From a virus, in IMG/VR virus record IMGVR_UViG_3300043775_001610, positions 46,253 through 110,252 of that record: a DNA stretch of 64,000 nucleotides; one strand, 5' to 3'. A program made the position numbers and the translations under genes. Below are positions 227 to 30,341 of this stretch, in pieces (within the stretch, counting starts at the first letter, position 1; the number at the start of each line of letters is the position of its first letter). The notes under the pieces are model-generated. The model did not search any database, was not told the DNA's origin, and saw only the letters and a program-made list of their open reading frames with translations.

Positions 227-561
227 ATTTAGCCGCTTTAGAAGGCCAAGTTTTTCTTTTAGGTCACTGGAAGAATTACGAAGAGCTAGAAGAAAATTTA
301 TCGATGCCAGAATTGGTTCAAACCATAACAGCGATAAATGAAAAAGAGCATAACCAAAGAAGATTCGCAGCATCTCTAAAAGGAATACAATTAGATGATG
401 ATGTAGAAGAAAAAGAAAAAGGTTCTACCTTTGAGGATATCCAAAGAAGAGCTCTTGGAATTAAAGCATCAGCAGATGATGTTGTTGGTTTACAAGGTCC
501 CTTCGCAGCGCAAGCTGGATTTGGAATTGGCGCAGGGTTAGGATACTCTAGGAGTAATTAG
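190..561 (+). CDS. Frameshift extension of the tail chaperone (gpT part of gpGT)
   Basis: Frame 1 reads PNSGSGTGWSELDLAALEGQVFLLGHWKNYEELEENLSMPEL... The ORF track reports only 304-561. Confidence 0.75.
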   Translation, partial: PNSGSGTGWSELDLAALEGQVFLLGHWKNYEELEENLSMPELVQTITAINEKEHNQRRFAASLKGIQLDDDVEEKEKGSTFEDIQRRALGIKASADDVVGLQGPFAAQAGFGIGAGLGYSRSN

Positions 562-3500
562 TGGCTGACGAACAAATCGTAACCAGTATAGTCGCCAAAG
601 CCGACTTGTCTAGCCTTGTGTCTGAAGTACACAGGGCTAGCGCTAGTCTACAACAATTACAAAGAGAGCTTCTTTCTTCAAACAGAGCAATAGCTGCTTC
701 AACAAAGTTAGCAAATAACTTATTTAGAGATACACTGACTGGTAGTGGACAATACTCCAGCCACTTTGTAAACCTTAATTCTGATGTAGATAAGTTTGGT
801 AAAAACTTAGACGCTGGTAGATTAAAACTTAAAAACTATTTTTCAACATTTAGAGAGCATGCTACAACACAAAAGGGCATGATCAGGGAGCTTGCCAAAG
901 AGCAGGTAATGCTTCAGAATGCAGTACTTCAACCATTGGGTAGAAATGCTCAAGGTTTAATGCAGTACAATGTTATGATTCCTAGAGGTTTAGATGCTGT
1001 AAGAAATAGCGCACAACTAGCTCGAATGGAAATGCAGATAATGAATCGTGCATTGTCTGAAGGAGCAGGATCTTTAATTAACTGGGGTAAGAATACTCAG
1101 TGGGCAGGTAGACAGCTAACAGTTGGATTAACCGTTCCACTTACAATGTTTGGAGCGGCAGCTGGTAAAGCATTTAGAGAAGCAGATGCTGAATTAGTAA
1201 GATTAACAAAGGTTTACGGAGGACTAGCATCAACATCTGCACAAGATCTCAAAGCAATTAGAGAAGAAGTTGTGCAAACAGCAAAGTCTTTATCCCAAAC
1301 AATGGGAGCCTCATTTAAAGATACAATTGCATTGGGTGCTGATATTGCAGCGACTGGAAAGATGGGCAACGATCTTTTAGAGTCAATTTCAGAAACTACT
1401 AGACTTTCTATTTTGGGTGAAGTTGACAGACAAGATGCTATGAAAGCAACTCTATCAATTCAAACAGCATTTAAACAGAATACAGAAGAGCTTACAGAAT
1501 CAATTAACTTTTTAAACGCAGTTGAAAACCAGACATCAACTACACTTGCGGATTTAGTAGAAGCAATTCCAAAAGCAGGTCCAGTAATTCAGCAACTAGG
1601 CGGAGATGTCAAAGACTTAGCTCTTTATTTGACAGCAATGCGAGAAGGTGGAATTAATGCATCAGAAGGTGCTAACGCATTAAAGTCTGGACTTGCATCT
1701 CTTATAAACCCAACAAAACAAACTGTCGGTATGATGTCAGACTTTGGCATAGATGTTATGGGTATGGTTGCAAAAAATACTGGAGACACAACAGGCTTAT
1801 TAACAGACTTACAAAAAGCTTTAGACAGCCTTGACCCGTTAAGCAAAGCAAGGGCAATGGAGCAAATGTTTGGAAAGTTTCAGTTTGCAAGAATGAGCGC
1901 CTTGCTTAATAACCTAGGCAAAGAAGGTAGCCAGACACTTCAGGTTATGGAATTGATGAAAGCAAGCACTTCAGATTTAGCAGGAATTGCTGAGCGAGAA
2001 TTAGGAATGATAACGGAATCCGCTTCTGGAAAATATAGAAGAGCTATGGAATCCCTAAAAGCATCTCTGGCAGATATTGGAGAAGATTTCCTACCAGTTG
2101 CAACAAAGCTTGTAAATGCAGCAGCAAAGATATTAGACTTCTTTAGTAATTTACCATCCCCAATTAAAAAAGCAGTTACTTTCTTAGCAGGATTTACCGC
2201 ATTAGTTGGACCACTTATTATGTTAACTGGTGTTCTTGCTAACTTCTTTGGATACATAACTAAGGGTATTGTTCAACTAAGAGCATTCTTTATGAAAGCT
2301 AATGGATGGAAGATGCTTACTCCAGAAATTATTGCCGCTCAAAAAGCAGCAGAAATGGTGGAGAACGCATTTTATTCAGATGCAGCAGCAGCTCAAGTTC
2401 TTCACAATGCATTACAAAAACTTGTTTTAGATTATCAAAATTTGCAAGCAGCTTCGATGAAAAATGCTGTTCCTGTAAACCCAGGAGTAAGTACAGTTGG
2501 CGGTGCACCAGTAATGGTTGCTGGAAGAAGAGTTGTTGACCCTAATGATCCTTATGTAGGAGATGTTAACACTAGAGCAATGTCTCACATTAACCCTAGA
2601 GATCCTAATAATCCTGCAACAATATTTGGTGGTGTTCCTGGCGCAGTTCCAGTTAACAGAGGAATATCAAGAACCCCTCAAGTATACATGCATGATAGAC
2701 TTCCAAATATTGAAGGACTAACAAGTATAAAAGGAATATCGACAGGAATTGTTCCAGGAGAAGCAGCTAAATTTCACGCATTGATGGCAACACTTGGTAT
2801 GCAAACCAAGCAAGAGGTTGCGGAATTAAAGAAAACAATTGCTATGGGTGGAACAGTAAGCAGAGAGCTACTAGACACATTTGATGACATATTGCCAATA
2901 ACTCAAAGATTTGCAGATAGTGCAGCAACACAAGCAGCAGTAATTGTGCAGCAAATGAGAAATGCAGAAATAACAGTTGAGCAGGCAAAGGCAAGAATCT
3001 TAGCACTCAATGCACAAATAGAGGCAGACATGGGTACAGCGGTAAGCATGTATGCTGCAGGCCGAGGAAGAACGCTAGATTTAACAAGAGCTCCGATGAT
3101 GGATCAACCAGTTGTTGATGCAAATGGTCAGTTTACACTAAGAGATCTTTATAAGAAAAAAGCAAATGCTTCTGTGATGGAAGAGTTTGGAAGACTTCGT
3201 GGAGTAAGAACATTCGGCGCACCATATAGTATTCAAACAACAAGAATGCCTAGATTTAATACTGGAGGAGACGTAGAGTCGTTTGGCCCAAATAAAACTA
3301 TGGTGTCTGGTCCATCTTCAATTAACTATGACGATAGGTTGGGAGAGGTCCCTCTCGGTGGATATGTTTTAAATCAGCAGGCTTCCATGGATCCAGCAAA
3401 TGCTGATTTGGTTGCTATGGCTCCATCTACTTATTTGAATAATGGTGGAAGCATTACCGCAGCTCTTACCCCACGGGAGGTTGTCTTTGGTCCACAAATT

Positions 3501-6500
3501 CAAAGAATGCCTGAGCTTTATGCAGCCGTAGATGCAGCAAATAGTGGATATAATTTCGGCGGGCAGATTATGGCTGGTATTACTGGATATGGAAAGAAAA
3601 CATCTAATACTCCAGGAAGCAAAATGGATGAAAGACTGTTTAAAAAACAGTACAAGGAATATTTAAGATTTATTAATAACCCACGATATGAAGATGACAT
3701 GAGAGTAAGAATGATCATGTTGGACGCAGCAGAACTATCTTATACAGCAAAGATGCCTATGGATCAAGCTATAAAGACAGCAACATCTAATTTTGATTCT
3801 GCTAAAATACAATCTGGTGGATCTGATGAGAAATTTGTAAAGATAAGAATTAAACAGGTACAAGATTTAGAAAAAAAGCATAAAGAGCTAAAAGTTAAAA
3901 ATGCTAGAACTGCCGACACAAGCAGTAGCAAGGCTCTTAACTATAATTTAAACAAGGTCAGAGATGCAATGCTGGCTGACAAAAGCTTTGCTGCCGTCCA
4001 TGATTTAATAAAAGATGTTTCCCCAACAACATTTAAAAATCGTAAAGGAATGCCAATCATCCAAGGATTGCATGATAGAGCACACTTTAGGCGTCGAGGT
4101 ACACTTGGTTATATGACCAGCGGATACATGGGTCTTGCTGCAGTTATGCCTTCAGGAATAAATAATATAATGAGCAGGCTTGAAACTCTAGGACTATCAA
4201 GAGATGTTTTAAATTTAAATGCAGCAGATGCAAGAGAAAATTTTGCATTAGCTTTAAAGAAAACAGGTATGGATAAGTTTGCAACAGTAGACGATCTTTA
4301 TGCAGCAGTTATGGACGACGGTAAGTTTAAGACCAAGGCGCAAATAGAGTCTGGTAATGTTGTAAGAGCAAATAGAAAGCAGAGAGATTCTTGGAGCATG
4401 TTCTTACGAGCTGCAGCAACAAGACAGAAATGGATTCCAGGAAGACCACCTAGACTTGTACCAGCTGGATACAACCTTGGCGGAATGATTCCAGGAGGGG
4501 CTATATCTAGAAATAGATTAAACTACGGCAACATCGCTCCGCTGCTTAGGTTATTAACACCAAGTCAACAGCTAAAGGTTTTAGGTCATGCCCGTGCAAT
4601 GTCTTTTACAGGACGTTCTCCATACCCAAATACATCATATAGCCACATAATATCGCCAAGCACAGGTCGTAGTTTCCCTGTACCTGGAGTTGGTGGAGTT
4701 TATGATGATGATCAAAAGAACAGAGTGTTTTTTAAAGCGGTTCCAAATGAAAAAAGTTTAGTTGCAGAAACTCATGGAACAGCGATAGGAAGAATACTAA
4801 AAGTAATTACTCCAGTTCAAACTAGAAAAACAATTCCTAACCCACTAGATCCAACTGGAAAATCAAAGTTCCTTGGTGCAGAATCACCTTATGATGAAGG
4901 ATTTATTAATCCTAATACATCTATACCTGGAAAATTTAGTCAAGATGAAGTTTTAGATCAGCTTATTACATCTCTTATTTTTGGAAATAAAGATTTATCA
5001 AGAGCAAATGTTCATGGAAGACGACTAGCCGATGTTGGAAATGGAGGAGTATTAGCTAAGGCATCTATGAATGATGACTATGCAAAAACAATGCCTTCTA
5101 TGGAAGAGATGGCAATGATCAATTTGCTGCAAGTTCGTGGAGGGGCTAGAAAAGATTTTGCTCATGACACCGCTCCTATTATTGCACAAATGACTCCAAA
5201 GCAGTATGGGGATGCCATAAGAGAAAAAATGAAAGCGGCTTATCCAGAACTAAAGAAATATATACTTGCTATTCCTAAAAAAGAAAGAAAGCCTTACTTA
5301 GCTATGCTTGAAAGGTTTGAAACTGGCATGGATGTCGATTGGGCCAAATATCATTCTATGCATGCTAATCCTAAATTTAATGCTGGAGGACCAGTTGGTG
5401 GAGGTCCAGTTCAAAGAAACAGATATGCTTATGGACGCAAAAAAGATGGATCAAGAAGACTAGGTAACCCAGCTGCAAGAGCAGCGCAAGAAAGAGCAAG
5501 AGCAGAGAGATCTGCAGCTTATAACCCAAGCAGCGGATCTTCATATACAGCGACTGGAAATCCTCAGATGCAGGTAGCACGTGTTCCGTTTGTTGGAGGA
5601 ACTGGAGTTCGTGGTAATGCTTACACTGGAGTTCCTACTGAATCTATGGCCAGAACAGTTGGTGTGATGAGACTTGCACAATTCCCTCATATGAATATGC
5701 CAACAATGCCAATGAATATTCCAGGAATAGGTAACACGTCAGCAATAACAGCAGCATTTGCATCAATGGGAAATTCAATTAAAAGAGATTCAATGCAATT
5801 AGCAAAAGCTATAAAATTTAATGCACAATATATCTCTATGTCAACTAAAGAAAGTGCAATGTCTATTGTTAATAGAACAAAGTCTGCAGCAAATACAGTA
5901 ATGACTTATACAAAAGCTATATCAAGTCAAGTTCTGGCTTCATCAAAAGCACAAGTTTCAAGACTTAAATCAGCTGGTTCAAGGTTTTATAATTCAATTG
6001 TAGCTGAGCAAAATGCTTACGCAGCAACAAGATATCCAGTTGGACAAGCCCCACCACAAGGATTTTTTGGCCCAGGCTATGTTGGTAAATATAAAGATTT
6101 AGGTGAGGGGCTACAGTCTAGAAAAGTAGGAAGCCTAGGTTTTAGAAGAACAGAGTATCTAGTTAATGGCGTAAGCATGACTGCAAAGCAGGCAAAAGCA
6201 GAGGGAGTTAGAATACCTCAAAGAGCCAATGGAATGAGCGTGGGTGCTCAAATGGGAATTGGTATGGCTGGATCAATGGGTGGCATGGCATTGATGCAAC
6301 AAGAAAAGGTAAAGGTTTTTGGAACAGAGATGTCTGGAATGACTGCTGGAATGGGATTAATGGCTGCTACATCAATAATTCCAATGCTCCCTTTGGCAAA
6401 AATGCTTGCTGGAATTAAAGCTGGTGCAGCTTCAGCTAAAGCTGCAATACAGGGATTCTCAATGACAATGAAAGGCCTAAGAGCAGGAATTGCTTTACTA

Positions 6501-9500
6501 GCCAGATTTGCAAAAGGCTTTGGCCCAATTGGAATAGCTATAACAATAGCAACAGCAGGATTTAAAATTTATAAGGCAATTCAAGATGACTGGCAAGATG
6601 CCAGAATGGGTCTTTCAATGACTGCAAAAGCTGCAGAACAGGCAGGAGTGAAATACTTTAACTTGCAAGAAACAATGCAAGGCTATCTAGATAAGCAAAA
6701 AGCTGTAGCAGTTGCAGCTAAAGCATCACAATTTAATTCAATAGGAATGCCTGGACTTCCTAAATCTGTAGAAGATGTAAAAAAGGCTAAAGAAGAAGGA
6801 AAGGCCTTAAAAGAAGTTATTGAGTCTATTAATAGATCAACTAGTACAGAAGAAACAAAGAGACTTCTATCAACTCAAAAGGCTCAATATATTGCAGGCG
6901 GAATGAGTGTTGAAGAAGCAAACAGAAAGCTATATGGGGCATTGCTTAATAGTAATAAGGCTATGCAGGCATATGACATTCTAGGAAACAGTGCATTTGG
7001 AAAAATTGTAGACAAAGCAACGGCTGCAGAGTATGCTGTTGGAAACTTGATAAACACATTAAACAAAGGCTCAGGAACAGCTGATTGGTATAAAGAGGTT
7101 GCTGTAGGATTTGAAGGATTGATAAATACTTTCCAGGCAGCAACATCAAGCTTAATTGGAACAAAAGATGCAATGGGAAATGTTATAGATGATTATAAGG
7201 CTTATGACATGGTCATGTCTAGTTCAGAAAAAATGTATCCAGGGTTTACTGCCCCAATTGGTGAAGAGGCATATGATAACCTTAGCAAGACAAACAAGCT
7301 GTTGGCTGGAATTGTAACTAAATCAGATAGCGTAAAAAGTATATTAGCAAAATGGAGTTTATTTACATCTGGAGTTAGTTATGATTTAAGTAAGATTGGT
7401 CCAGAGTTGGCAATTCAGTTAGCTGGATTTTCTGAAGCAGTTGGATCAGGAATTACTCAATTAACTAAGGCAGGTGGAGACGCTACTACTTTTGGAAAAG
7501 TTGGGTCTGCTTTAGAAAAATTGAAAAAGCAAGTAAATGCTGTTAGCGCCGCTTCTCAAAGGGCTGCAGCTGCAGCTCAAAGAAGCGCACAAGAAGAATT
7601 AAAGCTGCTTGATAAAAAACTTAAAGCTATTGATGATGAAAAAAATAAAAAACTAGAATCTTTAAGAGCAACTCAAGAGGCATCAAATTACGCATTAGAG
7701 TTACAGAAACTTCAGATTGAGTATGCTGATGCTGTTTCTCGTGGAGATATGGCAGCAGCAAATCGTGCCCAATTAGAAATAGACCAGCTTACTTTAAACA
7801 GACAGTCAGAACTTGCTCAAAAAGCAATTGAAGATGCAGCAAATAGGGCAAAAGCTCCTATAGAAAAATCTAAAAATGCTATACAAGATAAAGCTGACAG
7901 AGATAATAACGCTAATCAAAATGCTACAGATAATGCAGCACAAGCGGCAGAAGTTTCTGAAAAGCTAGTTGGCTTCCAGCAATCATATAATGAGTTAATT
8001 GAGCGTGGAATAAAGGCAAAGCTTATGCCAGACCCAGAAAGAATAAGAGAAGAAAAGAAAGTGCAGGAAGGTCTCCTTGCACTAGCCAAAGAACTTCAGA
8101 CAGCTGGAACTGGAAACACAGCACTTGCTAAAGCAGTTCGTGAAGGATTCCAAAAATTAAAACTATTTGATAAAGATGGAAATCCTGTAAGCCTTACAAC
8201 AAAAGCGCCAGCAACAACTGGATCTGGAATGCCAAAAATTGGTCCAGATGGAAAAGTTGTAACTCCATCTCCAATAATAAACCCAGATCTTCTTAAGCAA
8301 TTTAGTAAAGATATGTTGGCAGTATCTGATATTGCAGAAAAAATAACTGGTGGTAAAACTAACTTAGATAGACTTAGAGTAGATTTGCTTCAAGCTTTAG
8401 GAGTTAATCCAGACAAATTATCAAAGACTGGTGTTGCTGGAAAAACTACTGGAACAGGTTTGCCAGGAGATCCTAAAAAATATTTTGATTCATCTGGCAG
8501 AGAGATATCAGAAAAAGAATATAAGAGTCTACCAGTAGGAGCACCTAAAGGCGCAAATGGTGTATCTGGAGAAACTTATATAGTCCCTATAAAAGGTCTA
8601 AGCAATAGAGAGTTTACAGGATATCCCGATGTTAGCTTAAAATTTGCTAAAGCAAATGGTGGCAAACTTACTTTCCAGGATACAAACGGATACATTTACT
8701 ATTCAAATGGTAAAGTTACGAAGGATGGAAAAACAGTTGGCGCATGGCTTGCTGCTCTACCAGGTGGAAACGGAAGATTAAAGTCTTACCATGAAGGCGG
8801 AAAAGTATTTGGCGAAGGAACTGCAACATCAGATTCTATTCCAGCAATGCTTTCGGATGGAGAATATGTATTTAGTGCAAAGGCTGTAGACGCTGCTGGC
8901 GGACCAGATGTTGTTGACAACTGGCACAAAGCACTTAGAAGAGCAGATGGCGGACCAATTTATCCTTTAGGTAAAAAACCAAAGTCTGCATACAACTCTA
9001 AGAATCAACCTACTGGAAGTCCTTACGGAAGATACTGGGGAGAATTAGAAAGACTATATCAAAGCTCACCAATCGGTTTTGATAAAAATGGAAAGCCTAT
9101 ATTTAATAATGCTGGAAAAGATCCATGGGGCGGAGTAGAGATACCAGGACTTCCATTTAGTGGCAAGGTAGGACAATTCTCAGATTACTGGCATCAGCTA
9201 GCAGAGCAACCAAGAAAGTATAGCGGTCCTGGAATGGGTCTTGACAAGGATCCAATGCGTTACGCAGGCTCTGGAGCTTCTATGGGAGGCATTGGAAACG
9301 GTGCTTACGGAGTTGGTCCACTTATGTTCCACGCAGGTGGGGCAGTCGGTCATAAGCATGATGTAAATCCAATTACAAAGGCATTTAGGTTCTTTAAGAA
9401 TGCAATGAATAATGGAACAAATCCAGCATCATCAATGATTATGGATATTATAAATCAGGCAGGGTACTTAGGGCAAACTGGCCTAAGCAGCCTGACAAAG

Positions 9501-11105
9501 GGCATAGTTCCTAAGCCTACTAAAGTCCAAGATAAGGATTTCCAAGAGTTTACAGGAATACCTTCAATATATAGATCTGTCACTAATAAAACAGATGAGG
9601 GCCCAGTTGGACAAGTTGATCCTACTGCTGGAAAGATTGTAGATTACGCTGGGGCATTAACATTTTTAACTCCGTGGCGTTCATCTAGTCGTATGGCTGC
9701 AAATGCCGCAGCTTCTGCAGCACTACCAGCAGCTCCACCATTATCACCAATCGAAATGTTCAGAGGACAGTTTGATAGTTTTGATGTAAGTGGGTTACCA
9801 AAAGGCACTATGAGCACAGGACCAAGAGTAAAACCTTGGGAATATGAAACATACAAAAAAATACTTGCAAGACATTATTTAGCGAAAAAACCAGACCCAA
9901 GAACATTGACTCAACACGAAGTCGCAGTTCTTGCACACCAGAAGGTTCCTGGCTTTGAAGGGTTAAGGGTTCATGACGAATACACTGCAGAGTCAATTGC
10001 CGACAGCTTAAAGTTAAGAGCTACCTTTAATTACACTTCTCCATTGACGAAATCGGTATCCACAGTAGAAGAGCTTTTAAGCAAGTCTTTATTTCATGGT
10101 GGAAACCTACCAACGGTAGATGGAAAAATTGATTTAAAAAATAGAACTGGATTAAACAGCTGGTACGGCGGTCAGATGTTTGCCGCAGAAGATTACAAGC
10201 AGGCCTTAGCATACCTTATGAGATCTCCAGAGAATACAGTCTATTCTGTTACATCTGCATTAAAGAAAGAAGATGTAATAGACCTTAGACATAATGCAAA
10301 CACGCTAGCTTCACAGCAGCCTTATGTATTTGCAAAATTACTAAGAGACATAGAGTCTGGTAAAATTGCACTTCAAGACCATCAGTCAAAGGACTATGTT
10401 ATACAAATGTTGATAGGTCAAGAGGGTGGAAGATATCCACGTGCTGCAGGCTCTGGAGCACTTAGAGATAGAATTTTCCAAAGATACTTCCAAGACATTT
10501 CTCCATGGTTAGCAGAAAACGGAATAAAGGCAATTATTCATAGAAATGGAACAAGAGTTGCTATCCCAGAAATAGGAAAATCCGTAGCAGATAACCCAAC
10601 TAAGGTGCAAGATTTTAGCGAGCTAGGTACCGATGCAATAGCCTACACCACGGTAGAAAATTCAATTGCACAAATACAAAAGCATACTATAACTGGCCAA
10701 ATGGTTAAGGATCTTATTGAAAAAATGGGCAAGGGACAACTACCCTCCTCACTTGAGTCACAAATACTTGCAATGCTTAGAAATCCTACATTAGTACCTC
10801 ATAAAGCATTAGGTGGATTAATTAAATCAACAGGAATGAGACTACCTAAATTTGAGGCGGGAATCAATATGGTTCCACAAGACATGCTAGCGTTAATTCA
10901 TAAAAATGAAGCTGTGATCCCAGCCAATATGAATCCATTTAATCCAAATGCTAAATCTTCAGCAGTAGCATCAGGATCAGTATATAATATTAATGTAGAG
11001 CTAAATGGAACTACAGTAACAGCAAAAGACGTTGCAATGGAAATACATAGAGAAATGAGAATTAAAGAAATGGCATCTGGAGTAAATAGAAAGGTTGGTG
11101 GGTGA
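561..11105 (+). CDS. Tape measure protein (3514 aa) with inserted enzyme-like domains
   Basis: Follows the chaperones. TP901-type core (GRQLTVGLTVPL...AGPVIQQLGG), hydrophobic segments, and TMP C-terminal motifs GGKVFGEGTATSDSIPAMLSDGEYV and LIHKNEAVIPA. Confidence 0.92.
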   Translation: MADEQIVTSIVAKADLSSLVSEVHRASASLQQLQRELLSSNRAIAASTKLANNLFRDTLTGSGQYSSHFVNLNSDVDKFGKNLDAGRLKLKNYFSTFREHATTQKGMIRELAKEQVMLQNAVLQPLGRNAQGLMQYNVMIPRGLDAVRNSAQLARMEMQIMNRALSEGAGSLINWGKNTQWAGRQLTVGLTVPLTMFGAAAGKAFREADAELVRLTKVYGGLASTSAQDLKAIREEVVQTAKSLSQTMGASFKDTIALGADIAATGKMGNDLLESISETTRLSILGEVDRQDAMKATLSIQTAFKQNTEELTESINFLNAVENQTSTTLADLVEAIPKAGPVIQQLGGDVKDLALYLTAMREGGINASEGANALKSGLASLINPTKQTVGMMSDFGIDVMGMVAKNTGDTTGLLTDLQKALDSLDPLSKARAMEQMFGKFQFARMSALLNNLGKEGSQTLQVMELMKASTSDLAGIAERELGMITESASGKYRRAMESLKASLADIGEDFLPVATKLVNAAAKILDFFSNLPSPIKKAVTFLAGFTALVGPLIMLTGVLANFFGYITKGIVQLRAFFMKANGWKMLTPEIIAAQKAAEMVENAFYSDAAAAQVLHNALQKLVLDYQNLQAASMKNAVPVNPGVSTVGGAPVMVAGRRVVDPNDPYVGDVNTRAMSHINPRDPNNPATIFGGVPGAVPVNRGISRTPQVYMHDRLPNIEGLTSIKGISTGIVPGEAAKFHALMATLGMQTKQEVAELKKTIAMGGTVSRELLDTFDDILPITQRFADSAATQAAVIVQQMRNAEITVEQAKARILALNAQIEADMGTAVSMYAAGRGRTLDLTRAPMMDQPVVDANGQFTLRDLYKKKANASVMEEFGRLRGVRTFGAPYSIQTTRMPRFNTGGDVESFGPNKTMVSGPSSINYDDRLGEVPLGGYVLNQQASMDPANADLVAMAPSTYLNNGGSITAALTPREVVFGPQIQRMPELYAAVDAANSGYNFGGQIMAGITGYGKKTSNTPGSKMDERLFKKQYKEYLRFINNPRYEDDMRVRMIMLDAAELSYTAKMPMDQAIKTATSNFDSAKIQSGGSDEKFVKIRIKQVQDLEKKHKELKVKNARTADTSSSKALNYNLNKVRDAMLADKSFAAVHDLIKDVSPTTFKNRKGMPIIQGLHDRAHFRRRGTLGYMTSGYMGLAAVMPSGINNIMSRLETLGLSRDVLNLNAADARENFALALKKTGMDKFATVDDLYAAVMDDGKFKTKAQIESGNVVRANRKQRDSWSMFLRAAATRQKWIPGRPPRLVPAGYNLGGMIPGGAISRNRLNYGNIAPLLRLLTPSQQLKVLGHARAMSFTGRSPYPNTSYSHIISPSTGRSFPVPGVGGVYDDDQKNRVFFKAVPNEKSLVAETHGTAIGRILKVITPVQTRKTIPNPLDPTGKSKFLGAESPYDEGFINPNTSIPGKFSQDEVLDQLITSLIFGNKDLSRANVHGRRLADVGNGGVLAKASMNDDYAKTMPSMEEMAMINLLQVRGGARKDFAHDTAPIIAQMTPKQYGDAIREKMKAAYPELKKYILAIPKKERKPYLAMLERFETGMDVDWAKYHSMHANPKFNAGGPVGGGPVQRNRYAYGRKKDGSRRLGNPAARAAQERARAERSAAYNPSSGSSYTATGNPQMQVARVPFVGGTGVRGNAYTGVPTESMARTVGVMRLAQFPHMNMPTMPMNIPGIGNTSAITAAFASMGNSIKRDSMQLAKAIKFNAQYISMSTKESAMSIVNRTKSAANTVMTYTKAISSQVLASSKAQVSRLKSAGSRFYNSIVAEQNAYAATRYPVGQAPPQGFFGPGYVGKYKDLGEGLQSRKVGSLGFRRTEYLVNGVSMTAKQAKAEGVRIPQRANGMSVGAQMGIGMAGSMGGMALMQQEKVKVFGTEMSGMTAGMGLMAATSIIPMLPLAKMLAGIKAGAASAKAAIQGFSMTMKGLRAGIALLARFAKGFGPIGIAITIATAGFKIYKAIQDDWQDARMGLSMTAKAAEQAGVKYFNLQETMQGYLDKQKAVAVAAKASQFNSIGMPGLPKSVEDVKKAKEEGKALKEVIESINRSTSTEETKRLLSTQKAQYIAGGMSVEEANRKLYGALLNSNKAMQAYDILGNSAFGKIVDKATAAEYAVGNLINTLNKGSGTADWYKEVAVGFEGLINTFQAATSSLIGTKDAMGNVIDDYKAYDMVMSSSEKMYPGFTAPIGEEAYDNLSKTNKLLAGIVTKSDSVKSILAKWSLFTSGVSYDLSKIGPELAIQLAGFSEAVGSGITQLTKAGGDATTFGKVGSALEKLKKQVNAVSAASQRAAAAAQRSAQEELKLLDKKLKAIDDEKNKKLESLRATQEASNYALELQKLQIEYADAVSRGDMAAANRAQLEIDQLTLNRQSELAQKAIEDAANRAKAPIEKSKNAIQDKADRDNNANQNATDNAAQAAEVSEKLVGFQQSYNELIERGIKAKLMPDPERIREEKKVQEGLLALAKELQTAGTGNTALAKAVREGFQKLKLFDKDGNPVSLTTKAPATTGSGMPKIGPDGKVVTPSPIINPDLLKQFSKDMLAVSDIAEKITGGKTNLDRLRVDLLQALGVNPDKLSKTGVAGKTTGTGLPGDPKKYFDSSGREISEKEYKSLPVGAPKGANGVSGETYIVPIKGLSNREFTGYPDVSLKFAKANGGKLTFQDTNGYIYYSNGKVTKDGKTVGAWLAALPGGNGRLKSYHEGGKVFGEGTATSDSIPAMLSDGEYVFSAKAVDAAGGPDVVDNWHKALRRADGGPIYPLGKKPKSAYNSKNQPTGSPYGRYWGELERLYQSSPIGFDKNGKPIFNNAGKDPWGGVEIPGLPFSGKVGQFSDYWHQLAEQPRKYSGPGMGLDKDPMRYAGSGASMGGIGNGAYGVGPLMFHAGGAVGHKHDVNPITKAFRFFKNAMNNGTNPASSMIMDIINQAGYLGQTGLSSLTKGIVPKPTKVQDKDFQEFTGIPSIYRSVTNKTDEGPVGQVDPTAGKIVDYAGALTFLTPWRSSSRMAANAAASAALPAAPPLSPIEMFRGQFDSFDVSGLPKGTMSTGPRVKPWEYETYKKILARHYLAKKPDPRTLTQHEVAVLAHQKVPGFEGLRVHDEYTAESIADSLKLRATFNYTSPLTKSVSTVEELLSKSLFHGGNLPTVDGKIDLKNRTGLNSWYGGQMFAAEDYKQALAYLMRSPENTVYSVTSALKKEDVIDLRHNANTLASQQPYVFAKLLRDIESGKIALQDHQSKDYVIQMLIGQEGGRYPRAAGSGALRDRIFQRYFQDISPWLAENGIKAIIHRNGTRVAIPEIGKSVADNPTKVQDFSELGTDAIAYTTVENSIAQIQKHTITGQMVKDLIEKMGKGQLPSSLESQILAMLRNPTLVPHKALGGLIKSTGMRLPKFEAGINMVPQDMLALIHKNEAVIPANMNPFNPNAKSSAVASGSVYNINVELNGTTVTAKDVAMEIHREMRIKEMASGVNRKVGG

Positions 11106-11698
11106 TGAGTTTTCAAAATCTATCTAAAGGGTCAATATTATACATAGAAGCACCAGACCCATTTGCAATTGATTCAGCTACTAACACATTTGACTACAAA
11201 GGAGCAACAGTAACTGCTCCAGGAAACACATATGATGCTACAACTGCAACTAGAAACGGCCTTGCATATGCTAATAAAACAACTACGACAAAGTTTAGGA
11301 GAGTTACTGAGCACAATAGAGGCCCACTGACATTAGATAACACTAGAATTGAGCAGTCAGCCAGAATGTCAAATGGAACTATGAGAAAGTATTTTATTGC
11401 AGACAAGATAAGTGTTAGCGCTTCTTGGGACATGCTTCCTTCTTTTAGAAACGAAACAGTTGATGGTGGCTGGGGAGCGGAAGATATAAAGAATTTTTAT
11501 GAAAGCGCAGCTGGTAGAGGAGCATTTAAAATAAAGCTTAACCCAACCGTTTTTTCAACAGATCTTATAGAGCAATCAGACGGAGCTCTTGCAGATGACT
11601 ACACTTATACCGTAATGTTTACATCTGCTGATTTTACAGTTGCAAAAAGAGGACTTCAGACTTATTGGGATGTAAGTATAACTTTGGAGCAGGTATGA
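11102..11698 (+). CDS. Distal tail or tail-tip protein
   Basis: Directly after the TMP, about 200 aa, RMSNGTMRKY motif and C-terminal WDVSITLEQV. Confidence 0.6.
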   Translation: MMSFQNLSKGSILYIEAPDPFAIDSATNTFDYKGATVTAPGNTYDATTATRNGLAYANKTTTTKFRRVTEHNRGPLTLDNTRIEQSARMSNGTMRKYFIADKISVSASWDMLPSFRNETVDGGWGAEDIKNFYESAAGRGAFKIKLNPTVFSTDLIEQSDGALADDYTYTVMFTSADFTVAKRGLQTYWDVSITLEQV

Positions 11699-14600
11699 TA
11701 TCCGTAACAACCGCTACAAGCGATTTGCTTAAAAAGGGATATTCAGTTTCAACATCAGCTGGTGCTACAATTGAGTATAATTTAAACACAATGGTGGAAT
11801 ATATAACTGCAACATCTGATGCAATGGAAAACAACTATACAGTTGCTTTCCAAAAGTTGTTTCCAATAGACACAATATATAAACCATTCAGGCCTTTATC
11901 TGCAGGCATTAAATATTTAGTTCATACAACTGGATACACAGATACTCCAGTAGATTCTTTTGAAAATCCTAGAGATATACAAATGGGAACAAAACCAAGA
12001 CTCTACTATCCTGGCCCAGACATGGTATACAAATATTGGCTTGCCCCTAAGAATGAAGACATTAATATATCATTGCAATATTTTTCCGATGAGGCAAAAA
12101 CTACAGCCAAGCTAATACCTACAAATAAAATTATTGCTAGGTTTGAAATTAATCACGATACCCCAACTTCTTGGACCATAACTGGAGTAAAGGAAGATAA
12201 TACAGCTATACCTTTAGCAACTGGTCCTGGCTCTGCGATTAACATAATAACTGGTGAAGTAGCAATATATTATAATGGATCAACATGGTCAACTGACTCA
12301 TCAACAATAAATTATACTAGTTCTCAAAAATTAAAAAAGATATCTTTGTCTGCAGTAAATTCTAATAATGACAAGCTAATTGGTGTTATTGAGCTTAGCC
12401 CTAGGTGGGTACTTTCCCTTGATTCAGACGTTGTTTCATTTTTAGTTAATAAAGAAACTACGTCAGATGATACATCTGTTGTTCCAGTAGGAGTAATAAC
12501 AGCAAACTATTTAAACTTATCTATAATAAAACCACACTCTACATCTAAATCAATTATTGAGTATGATAGGTTTTCTACTACAATAGATGACACTAAAATT
12601 TACTTGTTTAAAAATGCTATTATCAGACCTTATGTAAATATAGGCGAAGGCTCTTCAAGTCAAAAGGTTTACCAAGGCCTATTTTATATAAACTCTTGGA
12701 GCCTTTCAGAATTTGGAGAAGCTTCAATAGATGCTACAGACTCAGCAAAAATATTACAAGATACTTTATGCCCACAATTGCTAGTTGAAGACTCACCAGT
12801 AACTTCAATTATTAAAAGAATACTAGACTCAGTTGGATTTTCTACTTATAAAATTAATTTAAAAAGAGGGCTTTTGAATAAAGTTGATGATAACTCAATA
12901 CCATCACTAGCATATTGGTGGTCAGATGGAGATAAAACAGTTTGGGACGTGCTGCAAGAATTATGCAGAGATATTCAAATGAACGCTGTAGTTGATGAGA
13001 ATAACATTTTAAACTTCTATAGTAGAGATTTTATGTATGATAAGAATAGATCTTCTGTTTGGACATTTACTAGTGAAGATATAAAATCTGGAACAAATTT
13101 ATTATACGCACCAAACATACAGTCTTTATCAACAAAAGAACTTTTTTCTGCAAATCAAGTTAGAGTAAGGTATGCAACAGCATTTACATCTACAAATAAT
13201 GAATCATCTTCACCATTATGGAAATCAGATACATCGTTTCTAGGAGCTGGGGCGCTTGCAAAACCAATAACACTTTCTAGTACAGACTTCGAGCTTAATC
13301 CAAATACGGTAATTGGCGCCAGAACAGATAGAATCATGGATCAGTTCAACGGATATGTTTTAATTAATGGAGAAATTATTGAATATGATGGAGTATATTA
13401 TCAATATGTGCCAAAGGGAGAAGATGAATTTGCACCTCCAGTTCTAATTAAAACTCAGTCAGATATATGGAAATATTCATCATTAGCAAAACCAGGATAT
13501 GAATTTTTTAAGCCAATAAATAAATACAATATTAAAACAAGAGGAGCATTGAAAACTTCTCCAGATACACATGATCCAGCGCCAGATTCATATATAAATG
13601 AAAAACCACCTGCCACGCAATATCCAAACAAGTTTAACATGTTGGGTATAACTTTGGCCACACCAGATACCGCTAAGTCTAAAAAAGAATCAGGAAATTA
13701 TTATATTCCATCTGCACAAGAAGGAAGAAAGATTAAAAAGGGATTTTTGTCAATTCCTAATTTAGATAAAGACAAAAAAAGTTTTAGTATTGCTGTTAAA
13801 GAATTTAACTCAATTGACACATCTAAAAACTATTTTGCATTTGGAACAAGAATGTTTTTTGAAAGCCAGCTTAACACTATAGAGCAAGTAGGAGGAATAG
13901 GATTTTGTTTAAACTCTACTGGAACTAATGGATACTTTTTACTAGTAAGAACAACAGCATTTGCAGGATTACAGAAAAACATAATGATTGTAAGAGTTAA
14001 TCAAAATGGAAAACTTACAGTTTTAAAAGATAGTCAGCAAATTTCTACAAAAACAATGGGAGCAGTAGATCCTGGAGTAGAGTACGGAATCGACGTGTTT
14101 GTTAAAAAAACTAGCCCACTTAAAAATGAAATAACAGTTTTTATTAATGGGTTTAAGATAACAGCAACCGATAGCGGATCAGATTCCCCAAGTACTTATA
14201 TACCTCCAATAGCAATTACTAAAAATGTAGGACTTCACTGTGGTCAAGGAACTGCTTATTTTGAGTATGTTTATGCAGATGACATTACTGAAGAGGTATA
14301 TGAAAAGAATAAAAGCCGTTCTGCTTATGAGCATAATGGTGTTTATTCAGACGATACCCTTTCAATGCTTTATGGAGATATCATTTATAATGATGGAGAT
14401 ACTAATTCGGATAATGCTGGACCAGTCTTTGAGTTTGGAACAACAGCTAGAGAAATTAAAAAAACAAAAATTTCATATGATGACAGGCCAGCAAAGCCTA
14501 TTATGTTTAGAACATCTTTAAATAAATATGTAACTCTTTTAGACCAAAAATTGCAGCCATTTGGAGCAGAAGGATATGTTCTAAATAATAGCTCTGTAAC

Positions 14601-14979
14601 AGTACCACTAGACGATAGCAACAACACAAGCTTTTACGTACTTGGAAATTCAATTACTAGGTCTGGTTTTATAGATTACGATACAGATCAGTCAGAAGAT
14701 TCTTCAAATAAAGAGCCAGTAATATTTCAATCAACCTGGATTCAATCAGAAGCAGACGCTAAAGCGCTAGCAGAATGGATAAAGGCAAGCGTATTGAACA
14801 AAGGAAGAGTTGTTGAGATGAGCGTGTTTGGCAATCCTTTAATATCTGCTGGAGATATGGTTAGCATAAGCTACCCAATATTGGGCATGACAGAATTAAA
14901 CAATAAATATATAGTCACAAAATGCACACTAGAATATAGGGAAGGATTAACTACCTCAATTTCGTGTAGAGCAATCTAA
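11695..14979 (+). CDS. Large tail or baseplate hub protein
   Basis: ATGA overlap start at 11695. TVWDVLQELC and a C-terminal FGNPLISAGD motif typical of hub proteins. Confidence 0.65.
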   Translation: MISVTTATSDLLKKGYSVSTSAGATIEYNLNTMVEYITATSDAMENNYTVAFQKLFPIDTIYKPFRPLSAGIKYLVHTTGYTDTPVDSFENPRDIQMGTKPRLYYPGPDMVYKYWLAPKNEDINISLQYFSDEAKTTAKLIPTNKIIARFEINHDTPTSWTITGVKEDNTAIPLATGPGSAINIITGEVAIYYNGSTWSTDSSTINYTSSQKLKKISLSAVNSNNDKLIGVIELSPRWVLSLDSDVVSFLVNKETTSDDTSVVPVGVITANYLNLSIIKPHSTSKSIIEYDRFSTTIDDTKIYLFKNAIIRPYVNIGEGSSSQKVYQGLFYINSWSLSEFGEASIDATDSAKILQDTLCPQLLVEDSPVTSIIKRILDSVGFSTYKINLKRGLLNKVDDNSIPSLAYWWSDGDKTVWDVLQELCRDIQMNAVVDENNILNFYSRDFMYDKNRSSVWTFTSEDIKSGTNLLYAPNIQSLSTKELFSANQVRVRYATAFTSTNNESSSPLWKSDTSFLGAGALAKPITLSSTDFELNPNTVIGARTDRIMDQFNGYVLINGEIIEYDGVYYQYVPKGEDEFAPPVLIKTQSDIWKYSSLAKPGYEFFKPINKYNIKTRGALKTSPDTHDPAPDSYINEKPPATQYPNKFNMLGITLATPDTAKSKKESGNYYIPSAQEGRKIKKGFLSIPNLDKDKKSFSIAVKEFNSIDTSKNYFAFGTRMFFESQLNTIEQVGGIGFCLNSTGTNGYFLLVRTTAFAGLQKNIMIVRVNQNGKLTVLKDSQQISTKTMGAVDPGVEYGIDVFVKKTSPLKNEITVFINGFKITATDSGSDSPSTYIPPIAITKNVGLHCGQGTAYFEYVYADDITEEVYEKNKSRSAYEHNGVYSDDTLSMLYGDIIYNDGDTNSDNAGPVFEFGTTAREIKKTKISYDDRPAKPIMFRTSLNKYVTLLDQKLQPFGAEGYVLNNSSVTVPLDDSNNTSFYVLGNSITRSGFIDYDTDQSEDSSNKEPVIFQSTWIQSEADAKALAEWIKASVLNKGRVVEMSVFGNPLISAGDMVSISYPILGMTELNNKYIVTKCTLEYREGLTTSISCRAI

Positions 14980-15002: not shown

Positions 15003-15326
15003 ATGGGAATTCAATCAGGAAAGATATCCGTAATATATGACGATGATCCACGCCTAGCCGATGTTTGGAAGGGTAATATTGGAGACACTAAATCTGTTGG
15101 AGAGTCAGATGGCTTTGGCGGAGGCGGGGGCGGAGATGATGGCCCAGGAGGCCCAGAAAGACCACAACTCAGCGATATAATTTTTAAAGGGTTTCTTCCT
15201 TATAGCGACTCTTCTAATGTACAAAGAATAAAAGCAAAATTTAGAATTTACAATTCAAGCAAAGAAGAGATAGATGGGTTCGCTCTTGCACTAACTAAGC
15301 CAGACACACAGGGAGGAAGACCGTGA
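15003..15326 (+). CDS. Hypothetical tail-module protein
   Basis: ORF with a Gly-rich linker inside the tail module. Confidence 0.6.
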   Translation: MGIQSGKISVIYDDDPRLADVWKGNIGDTKSVGESDGFGGGGGGDDGPGGPERPQLSDIIFKGFLPYSDSSNVQRIKAKFRIYNSSKEEIDGFALALTKPDTQGGRP

Positions 15327-16183
15327 TAACAAAATTTGGAAAAAGATTTTTAACTAGCTATATTGCAGGAACCTCCTCTCTGGATTCAAAAGAGATGGCT
15401 TTGGGTATTGCAACAAATTCTGAGTATCCAATATCTGATACAAACTCAAGATTAGGGTTTGAATTCTATAGGGTTCCAATTAGGCAAGGCGGAATTAATA
15501 TTGATACAACAACATCTCCAACAACTTATACCGTAATTTTTTCTGCTACTCTTCCTACAAACATATCTGGAAAAATTAATGAGATTGGTATATATTCTGG
15601 ACAATCATATGCTAGACATCTTTATAGCAGCAAGTTTATTTCAAATTTCGAATTGCCTTATGAATGGACTCCAGAGCCAGCGCTAGATCAAGTTAACAGT
15701 AGAGTTTTAGATAGCTCTTTAACGTTTACTTCAAACTCTACATCCCCACAAGAGTATACTTATCCACTGTCAAATTTAGATATTTCTGGGTATAACCCAC
15801 TTGATACAATGTGCCTTTGCTATAAAGCAAATGATGCAAACCTGTCTTCTATAAAAGTTAGACTCTACAGTTCTGATTCAGACTATATACAGTTTACTTT
15901 TTCTGGTCATTCGGTAGGAGATAACATTAAGTCTGTATTTATGTCTAGCGGAGTAACAACAGGAACATTTAATCCAGAGAGCGTTAGTAAGGTTGGAGTA
16001 ATAATTACACCAACATCAGCTCAAACATCTGTATCTATGGATGGCCTTAGAATAAATGACGAGGACACCTTTGACCCAGAATACGGATTAATTGCCAGAT
16101 CGATACTTGACTCAACAATGATCAAGGTCCTTGGAAGAGAATCTAAGATAGAGTTTAAACTAGATCTGTCGTTTGGAGTCTAG
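15323..16183 (+). CDS. Tail or baseplate protein
   Basis: MITKFGKRF...LGFEFYRVP...INEIGIY resembles tail-collar or baseplate proteins. Confidence 0.6.
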   Translation: MITKFGKRFLTSYIAGTSSLDSKEMALGIATNSEYPISDTNSRLGFEFYRVPIRQGGINIDTTTSPTTYTVIFSATLPTNISGKINEIGIYSGQSYARHLYSSKFISNFELPYEWTPEPALDQVNSRVLDSSLTFTSNSTSPQEYTYPLSNLDISGYNPLDTMCLCYKANDANLSSIKVRLYSSDSDYIQFTFSGHSVGDNIKSVFMSSGVTTGTFNPESVSKVGVIITPTSAQTSVSMDGLRINDEDTFDPEYGLIARSILDSTMIKVLGRESKIEFKLDLSFGV

Positions 16184-16184
16184 T

Positions 16185-23500: not shown

Positions 23501-23934
23501 GGCTGTATCTTGACGACACTTCTGTCGGATCTGGCGTAGAGCGTGAATACGATGTTCAAGCTTATCCAGCTTCAGGAAGCACTCTTTATCTAAAAAGTGA
23601 TTGGGGAGGTCCTTCAAATCTTGGATTAAGGGCTACTGCTCCTGCCACACCAGCACCAGTCCTTTCCACTATAACTGGAGACAACAGTTTAATTCTTGGA
23701 GGAACTTTTTCTTGGTCTTTTACAAACTCTCCAACCTCGTACTCTGTTTTTTGCACAGGACCTACGGGAACTGTTTTTACTACAAGTAACCAATACACCT
23801 ACACTGGAACAACCTTTCGACCAGGATACGATGGAACTGGATGGCAAGGACCTGGAAGCTATACAATTTATGTATCTGCTAGAAATGCTGGCGGAGACTC
23901 CGCTGTTGCATCATATACTAGATCTATGAGCTGA
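20599..23934 (+). CDS. Tail fibre or adhesin with Listeria-Bacteroides (InlB B-type) repeats and FN3-like domains
   Basis: YSVSYNAN...YAFNGWNTASDGTGTNY...LYAKW; Ser/Thr-rich beta domains. Confidence 0.7.
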   Translation: MGIYRKTTPSSYPNTPASNFTDSSKHWRKHKNMYRRTSDNETASLTTVPGRYTDDTRSWRRIRALYRFTSSGTWQKIFGKFAGQPYPETSASIRYDSYTGTVVGDFAEMGPGSTSIAQGSTATTFLWGRDGQDWQNIETLASRSRTFVQASTPVAETAQPITNDEGNFDGDKLRNSESVILQYDGKYVWYRDRITLSNGSTGTSYSQPVRIIKQQPVINNLAFKTNNDVSAGERKDVSFSIANQWYRSIDKTNSMFRWYILDSQYETPTQSKLWNSTSVSSVILTENTTVLTGEDFFTIPTTFGGVSTTGKWLHVELRLKNSSSDTDLDYALAPYNDVTDYVVAQIGASMPSFTYSLTNISSVTTPSAPVQQRVSTTSNTVLVEMGSSFPSDTESYELWSYGAGSSAGGTLANPSVQTVSTLNQYNSSGNFVPTGGSFDTVTGISSTASNSPISTFTKAIGTSRALRFNVSSTSGAQSWKINYTISGASSGNGTFALNTNSMPASITISGAANPTVTITGVTAYSDLNQMGTTKAGTVGSQVSLSTITKPVAFSTTATSNYTFYTNVQVTGSKRRVTLPSVFNSGTTIYVSTNGYINWGGSSLPEAERGISISIPALDNSGITIAPLNGDLRQGAVSATSNTSTGGLWYFSDASNFWVTWWGNYYQDAAQVARYQVKFYWGSNVADVYIVNNSLTTITPSTTAVQNNTSQYQSWSDTTVQDSVLLSTATMNRVSTQDGADDNRTVIVASPPVLTWTVTWDAAGGEGGTQFTTQNRGLSHTAPSPGDRDGFNFVSYRYPASGGTDPVFVGSGGSYTPTSSVTFGAIWATKTYSVSYNANLGTGAPSPQTKTHGVALTLSSTTPTRSTVGNTSYAFNGWNTASDGTGTNYSAGGSYTANAAVILYAKWTATTTESATKLATPTGVSASRTFTDKIRISWNAVSNASSYGVWYRGGAPSYNNVPDFPTTTGLYLDDTSVGSGVEREYDVQAYPASGSTLYLKSDWGGPSNLGLRATAPATPAPVLSTITGDNSLILGGTFSWSFTNSPTSYSVFCTGPTGTVFTTSNQYTYTGTTFRPGYDGTGWQGPGSYTIYVSARNAGGDSAVASYTRSMS

Positions 23935-30316: not shown

Positions 30317-30341
30317 CAGAGAGTATAGGCGGAGAATTAAG

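Follow-up and report, generated by a model that had tools for sequence, protein, structure and literature searches.

A phage tape measure protein with modules that meet at a short glycine motif and an exchange slot near its C terminus

Tape measure proteins (TMPs) are usually seen as rulers and channel formers of phage tails that occasionally carry a cell-wall hydrolase. We analyzed a 64,000-nucleotide stretch of DNA from an uncultured phage (IMG/VR record IMGVR_UViG_3300043775_001610, positions 46,253 to 110,252; hereafter the window), in which a single open reading frame (ORF) at positions 561–11105 of the plus strand encodes a TMP of 3514 amino acids (aa), P0001. This protein has a modular build, with a recurrent junction motif, a slot near the C terminus in which modules are exchanged between relatives, two blocks with predicted enzyme folds and a conserved stretch of 47 aa at the very end. 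The explanation that we favor, to which we give a probability of roughly 55%, is that P0001 is a chain of extra modules strung on flexible, uncleaved joints and added to a TP901-type core and a coiled-coil ruler. An earlier reading made from the sequence alone (the sequence-only reading) had described the TMP as a carrier of swappable effector cassettes that lie between about 10 GG motifs, and much of what follows bears on that description.

The strict form of the motif, [FY][NH]xGG, occurs six times in P0001, at aa 899, 997, 1304, 1606, 2743 and 2923 (nucleotides (nt) 3255, 3549, 4470, 5376, 8787 and 9327). The number expected from 2000 composition-preserving shuffles is 0.10, and none of the shuffles gave six copies. 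The looser pattern [FY]xxGG has seven copies, compared with 1.8 expected, and still looser copies are found at 3435 (LNNGG), 8940 (RADGG), 10803 (KALGG) and 10851 (FEAG), such that all coordinates given by the sequence-only reading proved to be correct. When 83 full-length homologues were aligned, at least 90% of the sequences shared the N and the GG of the motifs at aa 899, 959, 997, 1304 and 1606. Across ~120 metagenomic homologues the consensus is [FY]-[AH]-x-G-G-[LP]-V, and a logo of 271 non-redundant GG sites in the slot described below shows F and Y at position −3 (enriched 5.2- and 2.9-fold), A and H at −2 (3.2- and 6-fold), L or P at +1, V at +2 (5.6-fold) and enrichment of His at +4 and +6. 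The motif frequently lies beside a second element, either GG...SDSIPAxLSxGE[FY]V or ...NEAVIPA, and the FNTGG and LNNGG copies show a degenerate form of this anchor, GG...G[EG][YV]V. The searchable literature holds no description of a glycine or cleavage motif in TMPs, or of the SDSIPA element.

One candidate explanation, that the motifs are recombination repeats at the DNA level, was ruled out. The 72-nt flanks of the kinase-fold block match at only 36 of 72 nt (50%), and no pair of motif sites within the TMP gene shares 20 or more of 30 nt. The sites are not DNA repeats, and the constraint is on the protein. Models made with AlphaFold2 (AF2) predict that the motif regions are unstructured, with a predicted local distance difference test (pLDDT) score below 40 for aa 985–1028, 1290–1378 and 1606–1640 in the model of aa 985–1640, and likewise for the motif regions in the model of aa 3100–3420. 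As a separate observation, one form of the junction is rich in His, [FY]H[ADEK]GG-x-V-(G)H-x-H, and recurs in the slots of four homologues (P0024, P0082, P0056 and P0015) and at 9327–9359 of the window. Examples are FHAGGAVGHKH and YHDGGFVHPHPH; the subtype is sometimes in tandem with Gly-rich runs and resembles a metal-binding pattern.

The sequence-only reading had proposed that the motifs act as module junctions, and comparison of the homologues bears this out, as insertions, deletions and swaps map to the motifs. A raw count of all ends of high-scoring segment pairs (HSPs) near motifs gave ~2-fold enrichment; this was replaced by a stricter analysis with control patterns, in which we called a swap junction wherever an HSP of 45 aa or more and 35% identity or more stops and both proteins continue without collinear homology, provided that at least two partners showed it. 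By this definition, 16.8% of 850–880 junction clusters lie within 8 aa of [FYW]xxGG compared with 5.7% of random positions (3.0-fold), and 38.8% lie within 8 aa of any GG compared with 18.3% (2.1-fold). The control patterns AA, SS, KK, LL, GS, GK, [FYW]xxG[^G] and [FYW]xx[AS][AS] gave 0.7- to 1.2-fold and PG 1.3-fold; NG gave 2.2-fold because some copies of the motif read xNGG and so include it. The right ends of homology blocks cluster 0–9 aa after the GG and the left ends 1–5 aa before it. Single cases show the same pattern. In P0117, an extra module of ~190 aa sits exactly at FNAGG and is bounded by FNGGG and YMVGG-LISRAKTAYG; in six homologues, HSP boundaries fall at query positions (q) 1279–1305, in the YNLGG region; and in several others homology picks up again at YHEGG (q2738–2746).

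Comparison of homologous sequences places most of the swapping in a slot at aa ~2800–3467, with a hot spot just after RADGG. The length of the tail that follows the SDSIPAMLSxGEYV anchor is bimodal: 111–138 aa in 56 proteins (127–128 aa in 54 of these) and 438–1871 aa in 61 proteins. In the 56 minimal TMPs, aa 2800, after RADGG, is joined almost directly to the last 47 aa, with the break at q2790–2800; here the anchor is followed by three tandem empty motifs (..MASGGIVSYNVPKMSSGGRVRFSEGGLASS..) and then the last ~47 aa. In the 61 long forms, the slot holds 300–1750 aa. Downstream of the anchor, these forms diverge right behind [RF]AxGG (in P0001, RADGG at aa 2794–2798) and rejoin at KxxGG...PKFEAGINMVPxxMLAxxHKNEAVIPA (q3416–3428).

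We split the 61 long tails at [FYW]xxGG and grouped the pieces by mutual coverage of at least 75%, which gave 26 multi-member module families of tight lengths (for example, 49–55, 124–187, 256–358, 316–358 and 396–423 aa). These families appear in many orders and neighborhoods, sometimes in tandem. In P0001, the anchor is followed by module 1 (125 aa), module 16 (~490 aa) and the C terminus. Module family 1 has 30 occurrences of 124–187 aa in varied positions and is twice in tandem (in P0019 and P0118); module 16 is found in just four of the proteins listed, after three different neighbors (module 1, module 26 and a pair of modules 1). Proteins whose cores are 75–80% identical to that of P0001 carry unrelated slots, and P0118 carries a module 16 that is 59% identical to that of P0001 on a core that is only 27–50% identical. 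Like cores with unlike slots, together with the module 16 of P0118, therefore point to exchange rather than divergence.

What do the slots carry? The cargo of relatives includes CHAP domains (P0024 and P0018), LysM domains (P0010, P0018 and P0084) and many unrecognized modules, and CHAP is missing from most relatives. To judge from these domain matches, recognized cargo is mostly cell-wall acting, which fits penetration of the envelope at least as well as take-over of the host. A further slot module, aa 3339–3402 of P0018 (module family 10), has a weak match to the GNAT acetyltransferase family PF13673 (E 0.009, below the cut-off), and this module may be another, non-lytic type of cargo.

In P0001 itself, the C-terminal part of module 16 (S2b, aa 3151–3414) has a predicted fold like that of the ART-PolyVal group of ADP-ribosyltransferases (ARTs), for which the scores are consistent but weak. 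For this module, aa 3100–3420 were modeled from an alignment of 10 sequences (pLDDT 69, predicted template modeling score 0.67); the alignment, A3, consists of proteins that contain S2b, and those that share S2a only were left out. In an unbiased VIA search of 48,161 chains, the best match was a domain of the cyanophage A4 ejection protein (9k3a_B, Z 5.9), and 24 of the 25 chains ranked after it have ART or NAD+-toxin folds (Z 3.5–4.9). Among these are the folds of diphtheria-toxin homologues, PARP1, exotoxin A, ParT, tankyrase, cholix, RhsP2, MbcT, NatT and RES. Searches of BFVD returned ART-PolyVal proteins and polyvalent-protein domains (probability 0.99–1.0, template modeling score 0.47), and the Atlas gave an ART-PolyVal cluster (0.87). 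Five residues, H3179 (in FHGG), F3207, Y3228, D3241 and R3243, are invariant in the 10 sequences. PF18760 did not match S2b at E ≤ 0.1 when the whole protein was searched with hmmscan. Among 1.8 billion representative proteins, S2b has 13 matches, all of them TMP-like or fragments, with no clear free-standing relative of the ART module. The neighboring module S2a occurs with no S2b in P0003, P0004, P0021, P0024, P0036, P0149 and P0151–P0157.

The other predicted enzyme fold lies outside the slot. From 14 sequences, AF2 gave a model of aa 985–1640 with a mean pLDDT of 55.6, in which aa ~1379–1604 form a β-rich lobe followed by a helical lobe (pLDDT 54–95, a model of moderate quality). By this model, aa 1360–1605 of block B (aa 1304–1605) have a bilobal, atypical kinase fold. 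The top Foldseek matches are all kinase folds (CtkA, with probability 1.0 and E 2e-3, PI4KIIalpha, SidJ, VPS34 and MEK1). In VIA, CotH was found with Z 10.4 over 213 aa and HipT, MavQ, CtkA and PI4KII with Z 9.1–9.4; with HipA and Fam20, the range is Z 8–9.4, and 50 of the 50 entries listed are kinase folds. Nine residues (G1376, V1377, G1379, Y1381, K1392, E1403, D1478, N1483 and D1491) are invariant in 14 sequences down to 42% identity, and they follow the order of a kinase: PGVGGVY, K1392, E1403, D1478-x4-N1483 and D1491. Candidate roles, assigned by order and inspection rather than by superposition, are a Gly-rich loop, the β3 Lys, the helix-C Glu, a catalytic D-x4-N and a metal-binding Asp. 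Pfam and NCBIfam gave no match outside the TMP core of P0001, and a profile of aa 985–1640 found nothing among PDB sequences; because there is no sequence-profile match, we assign a kinase fold and name no family. A search for free-standing relatives of block B found none, the five matches being pieces of 1250–1598 aa or a short fragment. Likewise, searches with the whole of P0001 against Pfam, NCBIfam and PDB sequences gave nothing beyond the TMP core.

The two folds agree with the proposal of the sequence-only reading that two of the blocks bear enzyme signatures. Its wider claim, that several of the blocks between motifs are unlike the helical core of a TMP, holds for block B and for aa 3151–3414, with their predicted kinase and ART folds. 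Block A (aa 1002–1303) is helical, and the 1137-aa stretch 1606–2742 is mostly TMP-like, with hydrophobic segments and a coiled coil. Not every inter-motif block is a swappable cassette. Because a profile of both blocks (alignment A1) detects the kinase part in 119 of the 121 proteins and column conservation is 55–80% throughout blocks A and B in the 83-sequence alignment, the alignments indicate that both blocks are fixed parts of the family, and swapping is concentrated in the slot. The two exceptions are a fragment and P0118, which loses homology at q990, just before YNFGG. In six homologues the C-terminal part of block A (aa ~1107–1295) is swapped for diverged sequence and homology returns at YNLGG. 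We also considered a relationship of block A to SLT domains, but its similarity to a viral SLT cluster in the Atlas (0.79) is too weak to use and it contains no recognizable catalytic motif.

The motif also occurs in other phages. With [FY]AxGG ahead of it, the anchor GG-x-V-x-GPGTxTSDSIPAxLSxGE[FY]V is matched by TMPs from phages of Arthrobacter, Gordonia, Rhodococcus and Tsukamurella, and this element of ~60 aa was all that tblastn of aa 860–3514 matched in cultured phages. Of the PHROG families, at least 17 contain the composite anchor (12 of these are TMP families), as do, among the sequences of solved structures, the TMP of mycobacteriophage Douge (two copies, at 963 and 1411) and PDB 8rk3. 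The TMP of Gordonia phage Hollow has the order FREGG-anchor, WRSGG, FRNGG, SLT domain, YDSGG, the same layout as P0001 with a known cell-wall enzyme, SLT, as cargo. Pelagibacter podophage HTVC115P encodes, between portal and capsid, an acidic protein of 335 aa (gp72, L001:5254-6261) that carries GG and SDSIPAMLSDGEFV motifs and a GPGTGTSDSIPAMLSDGEFV element as in TMPs, and also YAYGG, KAEGG and MAKGG; its best PHROG matches are TMP families, via the motif alone. Solved TMP structures give no view of the motif: in the Douge model it is unseen because only residues 1658–1699, which lie inside the lumen of the distal tail and hub (DTP-BHP), are ordered (PMC13033339).

The features of the TMP gene are collected in Table 1.

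Table 1. Features of the TMP gene, in window coordinates
Feature	Position (nt)	Strand	Basis
TMP gene, 3514 aa	561..11105	+	Single ORF, PF10145, TIGR01760, 13 PHROG families
Conventional TMP core, aa 15–860, with a hydrophobic segment near aa 541–570	603..3140	+	PHROG TMP profiles, conservation
Three-motif cluster: FNTGG 3255, LNNGG 3435, YNFGG 3549	3255..3563	+	Motif scan, high conservation
Block A, aa 1002–1303, predicted helical domain, fixed in the family	3564..4469	+	AF2, pLDDT 50–86
YNLGG junction and 20-aa repeat YNLGGMIPGGAISRNRLNYG, left bracket of block B	4470..4529	+	Motif scan, conservation
Block B, aa 1360–1605, predicted atypical protein-kinase-like fold	4638..5375	+	Foldseek, VIA, invariant residues
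FNAGG junction and second copy of the 20-aa repeat, right bracket of block B	5376..5435	+	Motif scan, conservation
Central region, aa 1626–2742	5436..8786	+	Sequence reading and conservation profile
Anchor module, aa 2743–2798, YHEGG-KVFGEGTATSDSIPAMLSDGEYV...RADGG	8787..8954	+	tblastn, PHROG and PDB matches to other TMPs
Slot module S1, aa 2799–2922 (module family 1), commonest slot module	8955..9326	+	Module clustering
FHAGG junction (FHAGGAVGHKH subtype)	9327..9341	+	Motif; HSP ends at q2917–2936
Slot module S2a, aa 2928–3071	9342..9773	+	Sharing among homologues
Slot module S2b, aa 3151–3414, predicted ART-PolyVal-like ADP-ribosyltransferase fold, rare cargo	10011..10802	+	AF2 and fold searches
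Closing junction KALGG...FEAGINMVPQDMLALIHKNEAVIPA, second GG...E-x-V motif	10803..10925	+	Long forms rejoin here; absent from minimal forms
Conserved C-terminal 47 aa, presumed plug in the lumen of the distal tail and baseplate hub	10962..11102	+	Common to minimal and long forms

By its profile matches and its neighbors, P0001 is a TP901-type TMP, since it matches PF10145 (PhageMin_Tail; aa 239–438, E 1e-25, 91.1 bits against a cut-off of 33.2), TIGR01760 (aa 192–551, 102.4 bits against 28.8) and 13 PHROG TMP families, the last confined to aa 15–860, and since minor tail genes lie downstream. The position of the gene fits a tail block: upstream is an ORF of 85 aa (304–561), where a small chaperone-like ORF is expected, and downstream are an ORF at 11102–11698, a minor tail protein (11665–14979, phrog_10359, E 2e-84) and a tail protein (15323–16183). 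The window has 36–41% guanine plus cytosine (GC). Megablast of the TMP gene against 50,697 phage records gave no match, and at the DNA level the phage thus has no near relative in culture; among TMPs of cultured phages, the nearest are those of ~131-kb Streptomyces phages such as Wofford, which are 33% identical over aa 1–860. The sequence-only reading had looked to actinophages for relatives, which needs qualifying: the phage is uncultured, with 38% GC, and the identity to the Streptomyces phage TMPs is just 33%. From 5.8 billion proteins we obtained more than 190 homologues of 2000–4576 aa, nearly all metagenomic and on contigs of up to ~117 kb, and we take the lineage to be one of uncultured siphophages. 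In the 83 full-length homologues, the majority residue is present in about 90% of sequences over aa 1–1000.

The central region of P0001 consists of low-complexity sequence, a Gly/Met-rich hydrophobic part (aa ~1890–2005), a coiled coil (aa ~2010–2600) and a variable linker (aa ~2614–2742). Two Gly/Met/Ala-rich hydrophobic stretches, at 6228–6575 (aa ~1890–2005) and 2181–2270 (aa ~541–570), resemble the membrane-inserting segments proposed for other TMPs; the former sits between the kinase block and the coiled-coil ruler. Elsewhere in the window, two large ORFs directly after the tail genes (16173–20597, 1474 aa, and 20599–23934, 1111 aa) have no PHROG match at E ≤ 1e-5 and are probably tail fiber or baseplate proteins of an undescribed kind. 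An ORF at 30222–33611 (1129 aa) matches the DNA polymerase family phrog_405 over its full length (E 0). An ORF at 39360–41162 (600 aa) has weak, partial matches to the terminase large subunit (E ~1e-14, in the C-terminal third); its location, far downstream of the tail genes and after the DNA polymerase gene, is unusual for a terminase.

How might such a protein have arisen, and how would it work? We suggest that modules joined by [FY]-[AHN]-x-G-G-[LPV]-V have been inserted, lost, duplicated and shuffled at the joints during evolution. The helical block A and the kinase-fold domain, each bracketed by a pair of motifs, would have become fixed, and the slot from aa ~2800 to the last 47 aa would have been kept open to exchange, holding a common module of 125 aa and a rare one of ~490 aa in P0001 and CHAP, LysM or unrecognized modules, or nothing, in relatives. 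By analogy with the Douge TMP, the last 47 aa presumably plug the lumen of the baseplate hub and would exit first. Because this end would plug the hub and leave first, the slot would lie at the front of the TMP, and its cargo would meet the host envelope, and possibly the cytoplasm, before any other phage protein. We read the motifs as flexible, disordered joints, kept by selection on the protein, which would allow bulky modules to be strung out and threaded through the tail lumen; at such joints insertions would be tolerated. Cleavage at the joints could occur but would not be required.

Several points weigh against this explanation. Only 17% of the junction clusters lie near [FYW]xxGG and 39% near any GG, which is under half; HSP ends are noisy, and a conserved motif alone tends to end alignments, a caveat that attaches to the positive outcome of the alignment check for indels at the GG motifs. 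The pattern also occurs inside the CHAP domain (YTAGG and WTPGG), and some matches are therefore not joints. The predicted disorder of the motif regions may derive in part from thin alignments (10–14 sequences). ARTs of the H-Y-E type conserve a His in strand 1, an aromatic residue in strand 3 and a catalytic Glu, and no invariant Glu can be placed in S2b, as the candidates at IPEIG and VENS vary; for S2b and block B alike, the assignment is to a fold. Three copies of domains of 250–500 aa would have to fit in a tail lumen of ~4 nm, and the TMP may be proteolytically processed. Finally, we know of no phage of this kind for which entry of a TMP domain into the cytoplasm has been established. 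The sequence-only reading proposed effectors as cargo, whereas the cargo recognized in relatives is mostly cell-wall acting (CHAP and LysM, and SLT in Hollow).

An alternative, which we consider unlikely, is that P0001 is a processed polyprotein, in which [FY]xxGG is cut by a phage or host peptidase or by self-cleavage, at tail maturation or after ejection, to free the kinase, ART, CHAP and other modules. The motifs are at module borders and in linkers predicted to be disordered, Gly-Gly is a common P2–P1 pair of cysteine peptidases, some relatives carry a papain-like CHAP module, and TMPs of lambda and T5 are known to be processed at the C terminus. Head-packaged polyvalent proteins are also thought to be split by built-in peptidases (PMC5512222). 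However, Pfam, NCBIfam and PDB searches detect no peptidase domain in P0001, most relatives do not carry CHAP, and three tandem motifs persist in the minimal forms, which have no cargo to free. Very different TMPs have the motifs too, as does a podophage protein encoded in the portal-capsid module, and a shared protease would thus be required. We are similarly doubtful that the motifs are docking elements. In that case, each GG motif and its GE[FY]V partner would be short strands that bind another part of the virion (the lumen of the tail tube, the distal tail or hub, the tail assembly chaperone or the other two TMP chains) and so keep the trimer in register, and modules would lie between them only because insertions are tolerated there. 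Such a role would be consistent with conservation of the motif at the protein rather than the DNA level, with the tandem motifs that lie right before the hub-binding C terminus in TMPs devoid of cargo, and with the presence of the anchor in at least 17 PHROG families (12 TMP) and in the Douge and 8rk3 TMPs. Yet the TMP in the cryo-electron microscopy structure of Douge is ordered over 1658–1699 only, and no bound element is seen at either motif copy, 963 or 1411 (PMC13033339), AF2 monomer models give the motif regions no structure, and the podophage protein that contains the motif has no tail tube or chaperone partner.

A bolder version of the idea, which we regard as improbable, is that the motif and SDSIPAxLSxGE[FY]V together form a signal common to phage proteins that are ejected, be they TMPs or internal proteins of podophages. 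The signal would mark the sites at which cargo domains can be plugged in, as well as those at which the chain is cut or unzipped on ejection. The TMPs of this lineage would then be "polyvalent proteins" carried in the tail, and a kinase and exchangeable effectors, such as an ADP-ribosyltransferase, would be injected by them before phage genes are expressed. At the other extreme, P0001 might be an ordinary long TMP in which GG follows from a Gly-rich composition and the blocks are ruler helix. Although the protein is rich in Gly (324 of 3514 residues) and Ala, and block A and aa 2010–2600 are helical, this is scarcely credible in view of the shuffles, none of which reached the motif count, the conservation of the motifs, the kinase and ART folds predicted for two blocks, and the presence/absence variation and shuffling of modules in the slot.

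This family suggests that a TMP can serve as a modular carrier, with an exchange slot beside the end that would be first out of the tail. A short junction motif, common to distant TMPs and to a podophage protein of the portal-capsid module, marks where modules join, and it gives a concrete, testable way into the storage of bulky domains in a tail lumen of 4 nm and their expulsion from it. Domains typical of host manipulation, namely a predicted kinase fold (119 of 121 proteins) and a rare ART-PolyVal-like module, ride on a tail protein. Should they be delivered, pre-made effectors would have a second route in addition to that of polyvalent proteins packaged in the head, and there would be a natural template for loading cargo in phage tails.

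Among known systems, the nearest are TMPs that bear hydrolases, such as the TMP of mycobacteriophage TM4, which contains an Rpf-like motif (PMC1796659), those with SLT, M23 or CHAP domains and that of Hollow. Like the P0001 family, they have extra enzymatic domains in the distal part that act at infection. The P0001 family differs in having a defined slot with ~26 module families and a fixed kinase-fold domain, and the ART-PolyVal-like module of P0001, unlike the cargo of these TMPs, is no cell-wall enzyme. No junction motif is described for hydrolase-bearing TMPs in the searchable literature.

Polyvalent proteins (Iyer et al., 2017) are packaged in the head, are often linked to MuF, contain Zn-peptidase (MPTase) processing domains and are thought to enter with the DNA (PMC5512222). 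They resemble P0001 in combining several unrelated effector-type domains in one virion-borne chain, and the ART-PolyVal fold is common to both. By the same measure, P0001 holds predicted kinase and ART folds, to which relatives add CHAP and LysM. The carrier in our case is instead a tail TMP, in which Pfam and NCBIfam searches detected no MuF, MPTase or processing peptidase, and the paper on polyvalent proteins makes no mention of tape measure proteins (PMC5512222). The ejection proteins of podophages, such as T7 gp14–16 and those of the cyanophage A4 pre-ejectosome (9k3a, PMC12002296), are also large, ejected and equipped with lytic transglycosylase or peptidase domains, and a domain of the A4 protein is the best match of S2b among solved structures (Z 5.9). 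However, these proteins are stored in the capsid and are unrelated to P0001 in overall sequence.

Polymorphic toxins such as Rhs and CdiA likewise have a short motif (the pre-toxin motifs PxxxxDPxGL or VENN) at the recombination border of variable C-terminal modules (PMC3482391). They are bacterial, secreted, accompanied by immunity genes and end in a single toxin, whereas the modules of P0001 are internal and followed by a conserved, presumed plug at the C terminus, and the likeness is one of analogy only. The Tal proteins of lactococcal phages Tuc2009 and TP901-1, which are tail-tip proteins, are cleaved at a Gly-rich site beside a lytic domain. Tal and P0001 both have a Gly-rich linker near a domain, but the protein and the motif differ and cleavage of P0001 would be a proposal. 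Enzyme-bearing TMPs and head-packaged polyvalent proteins with ART-PolyVal domains were known already; the slot with shuffled modules, the junction motif, a predicted kinase fold found throughout a TMP family and a predicted ART-PolyVal-like module on a TMP are new.

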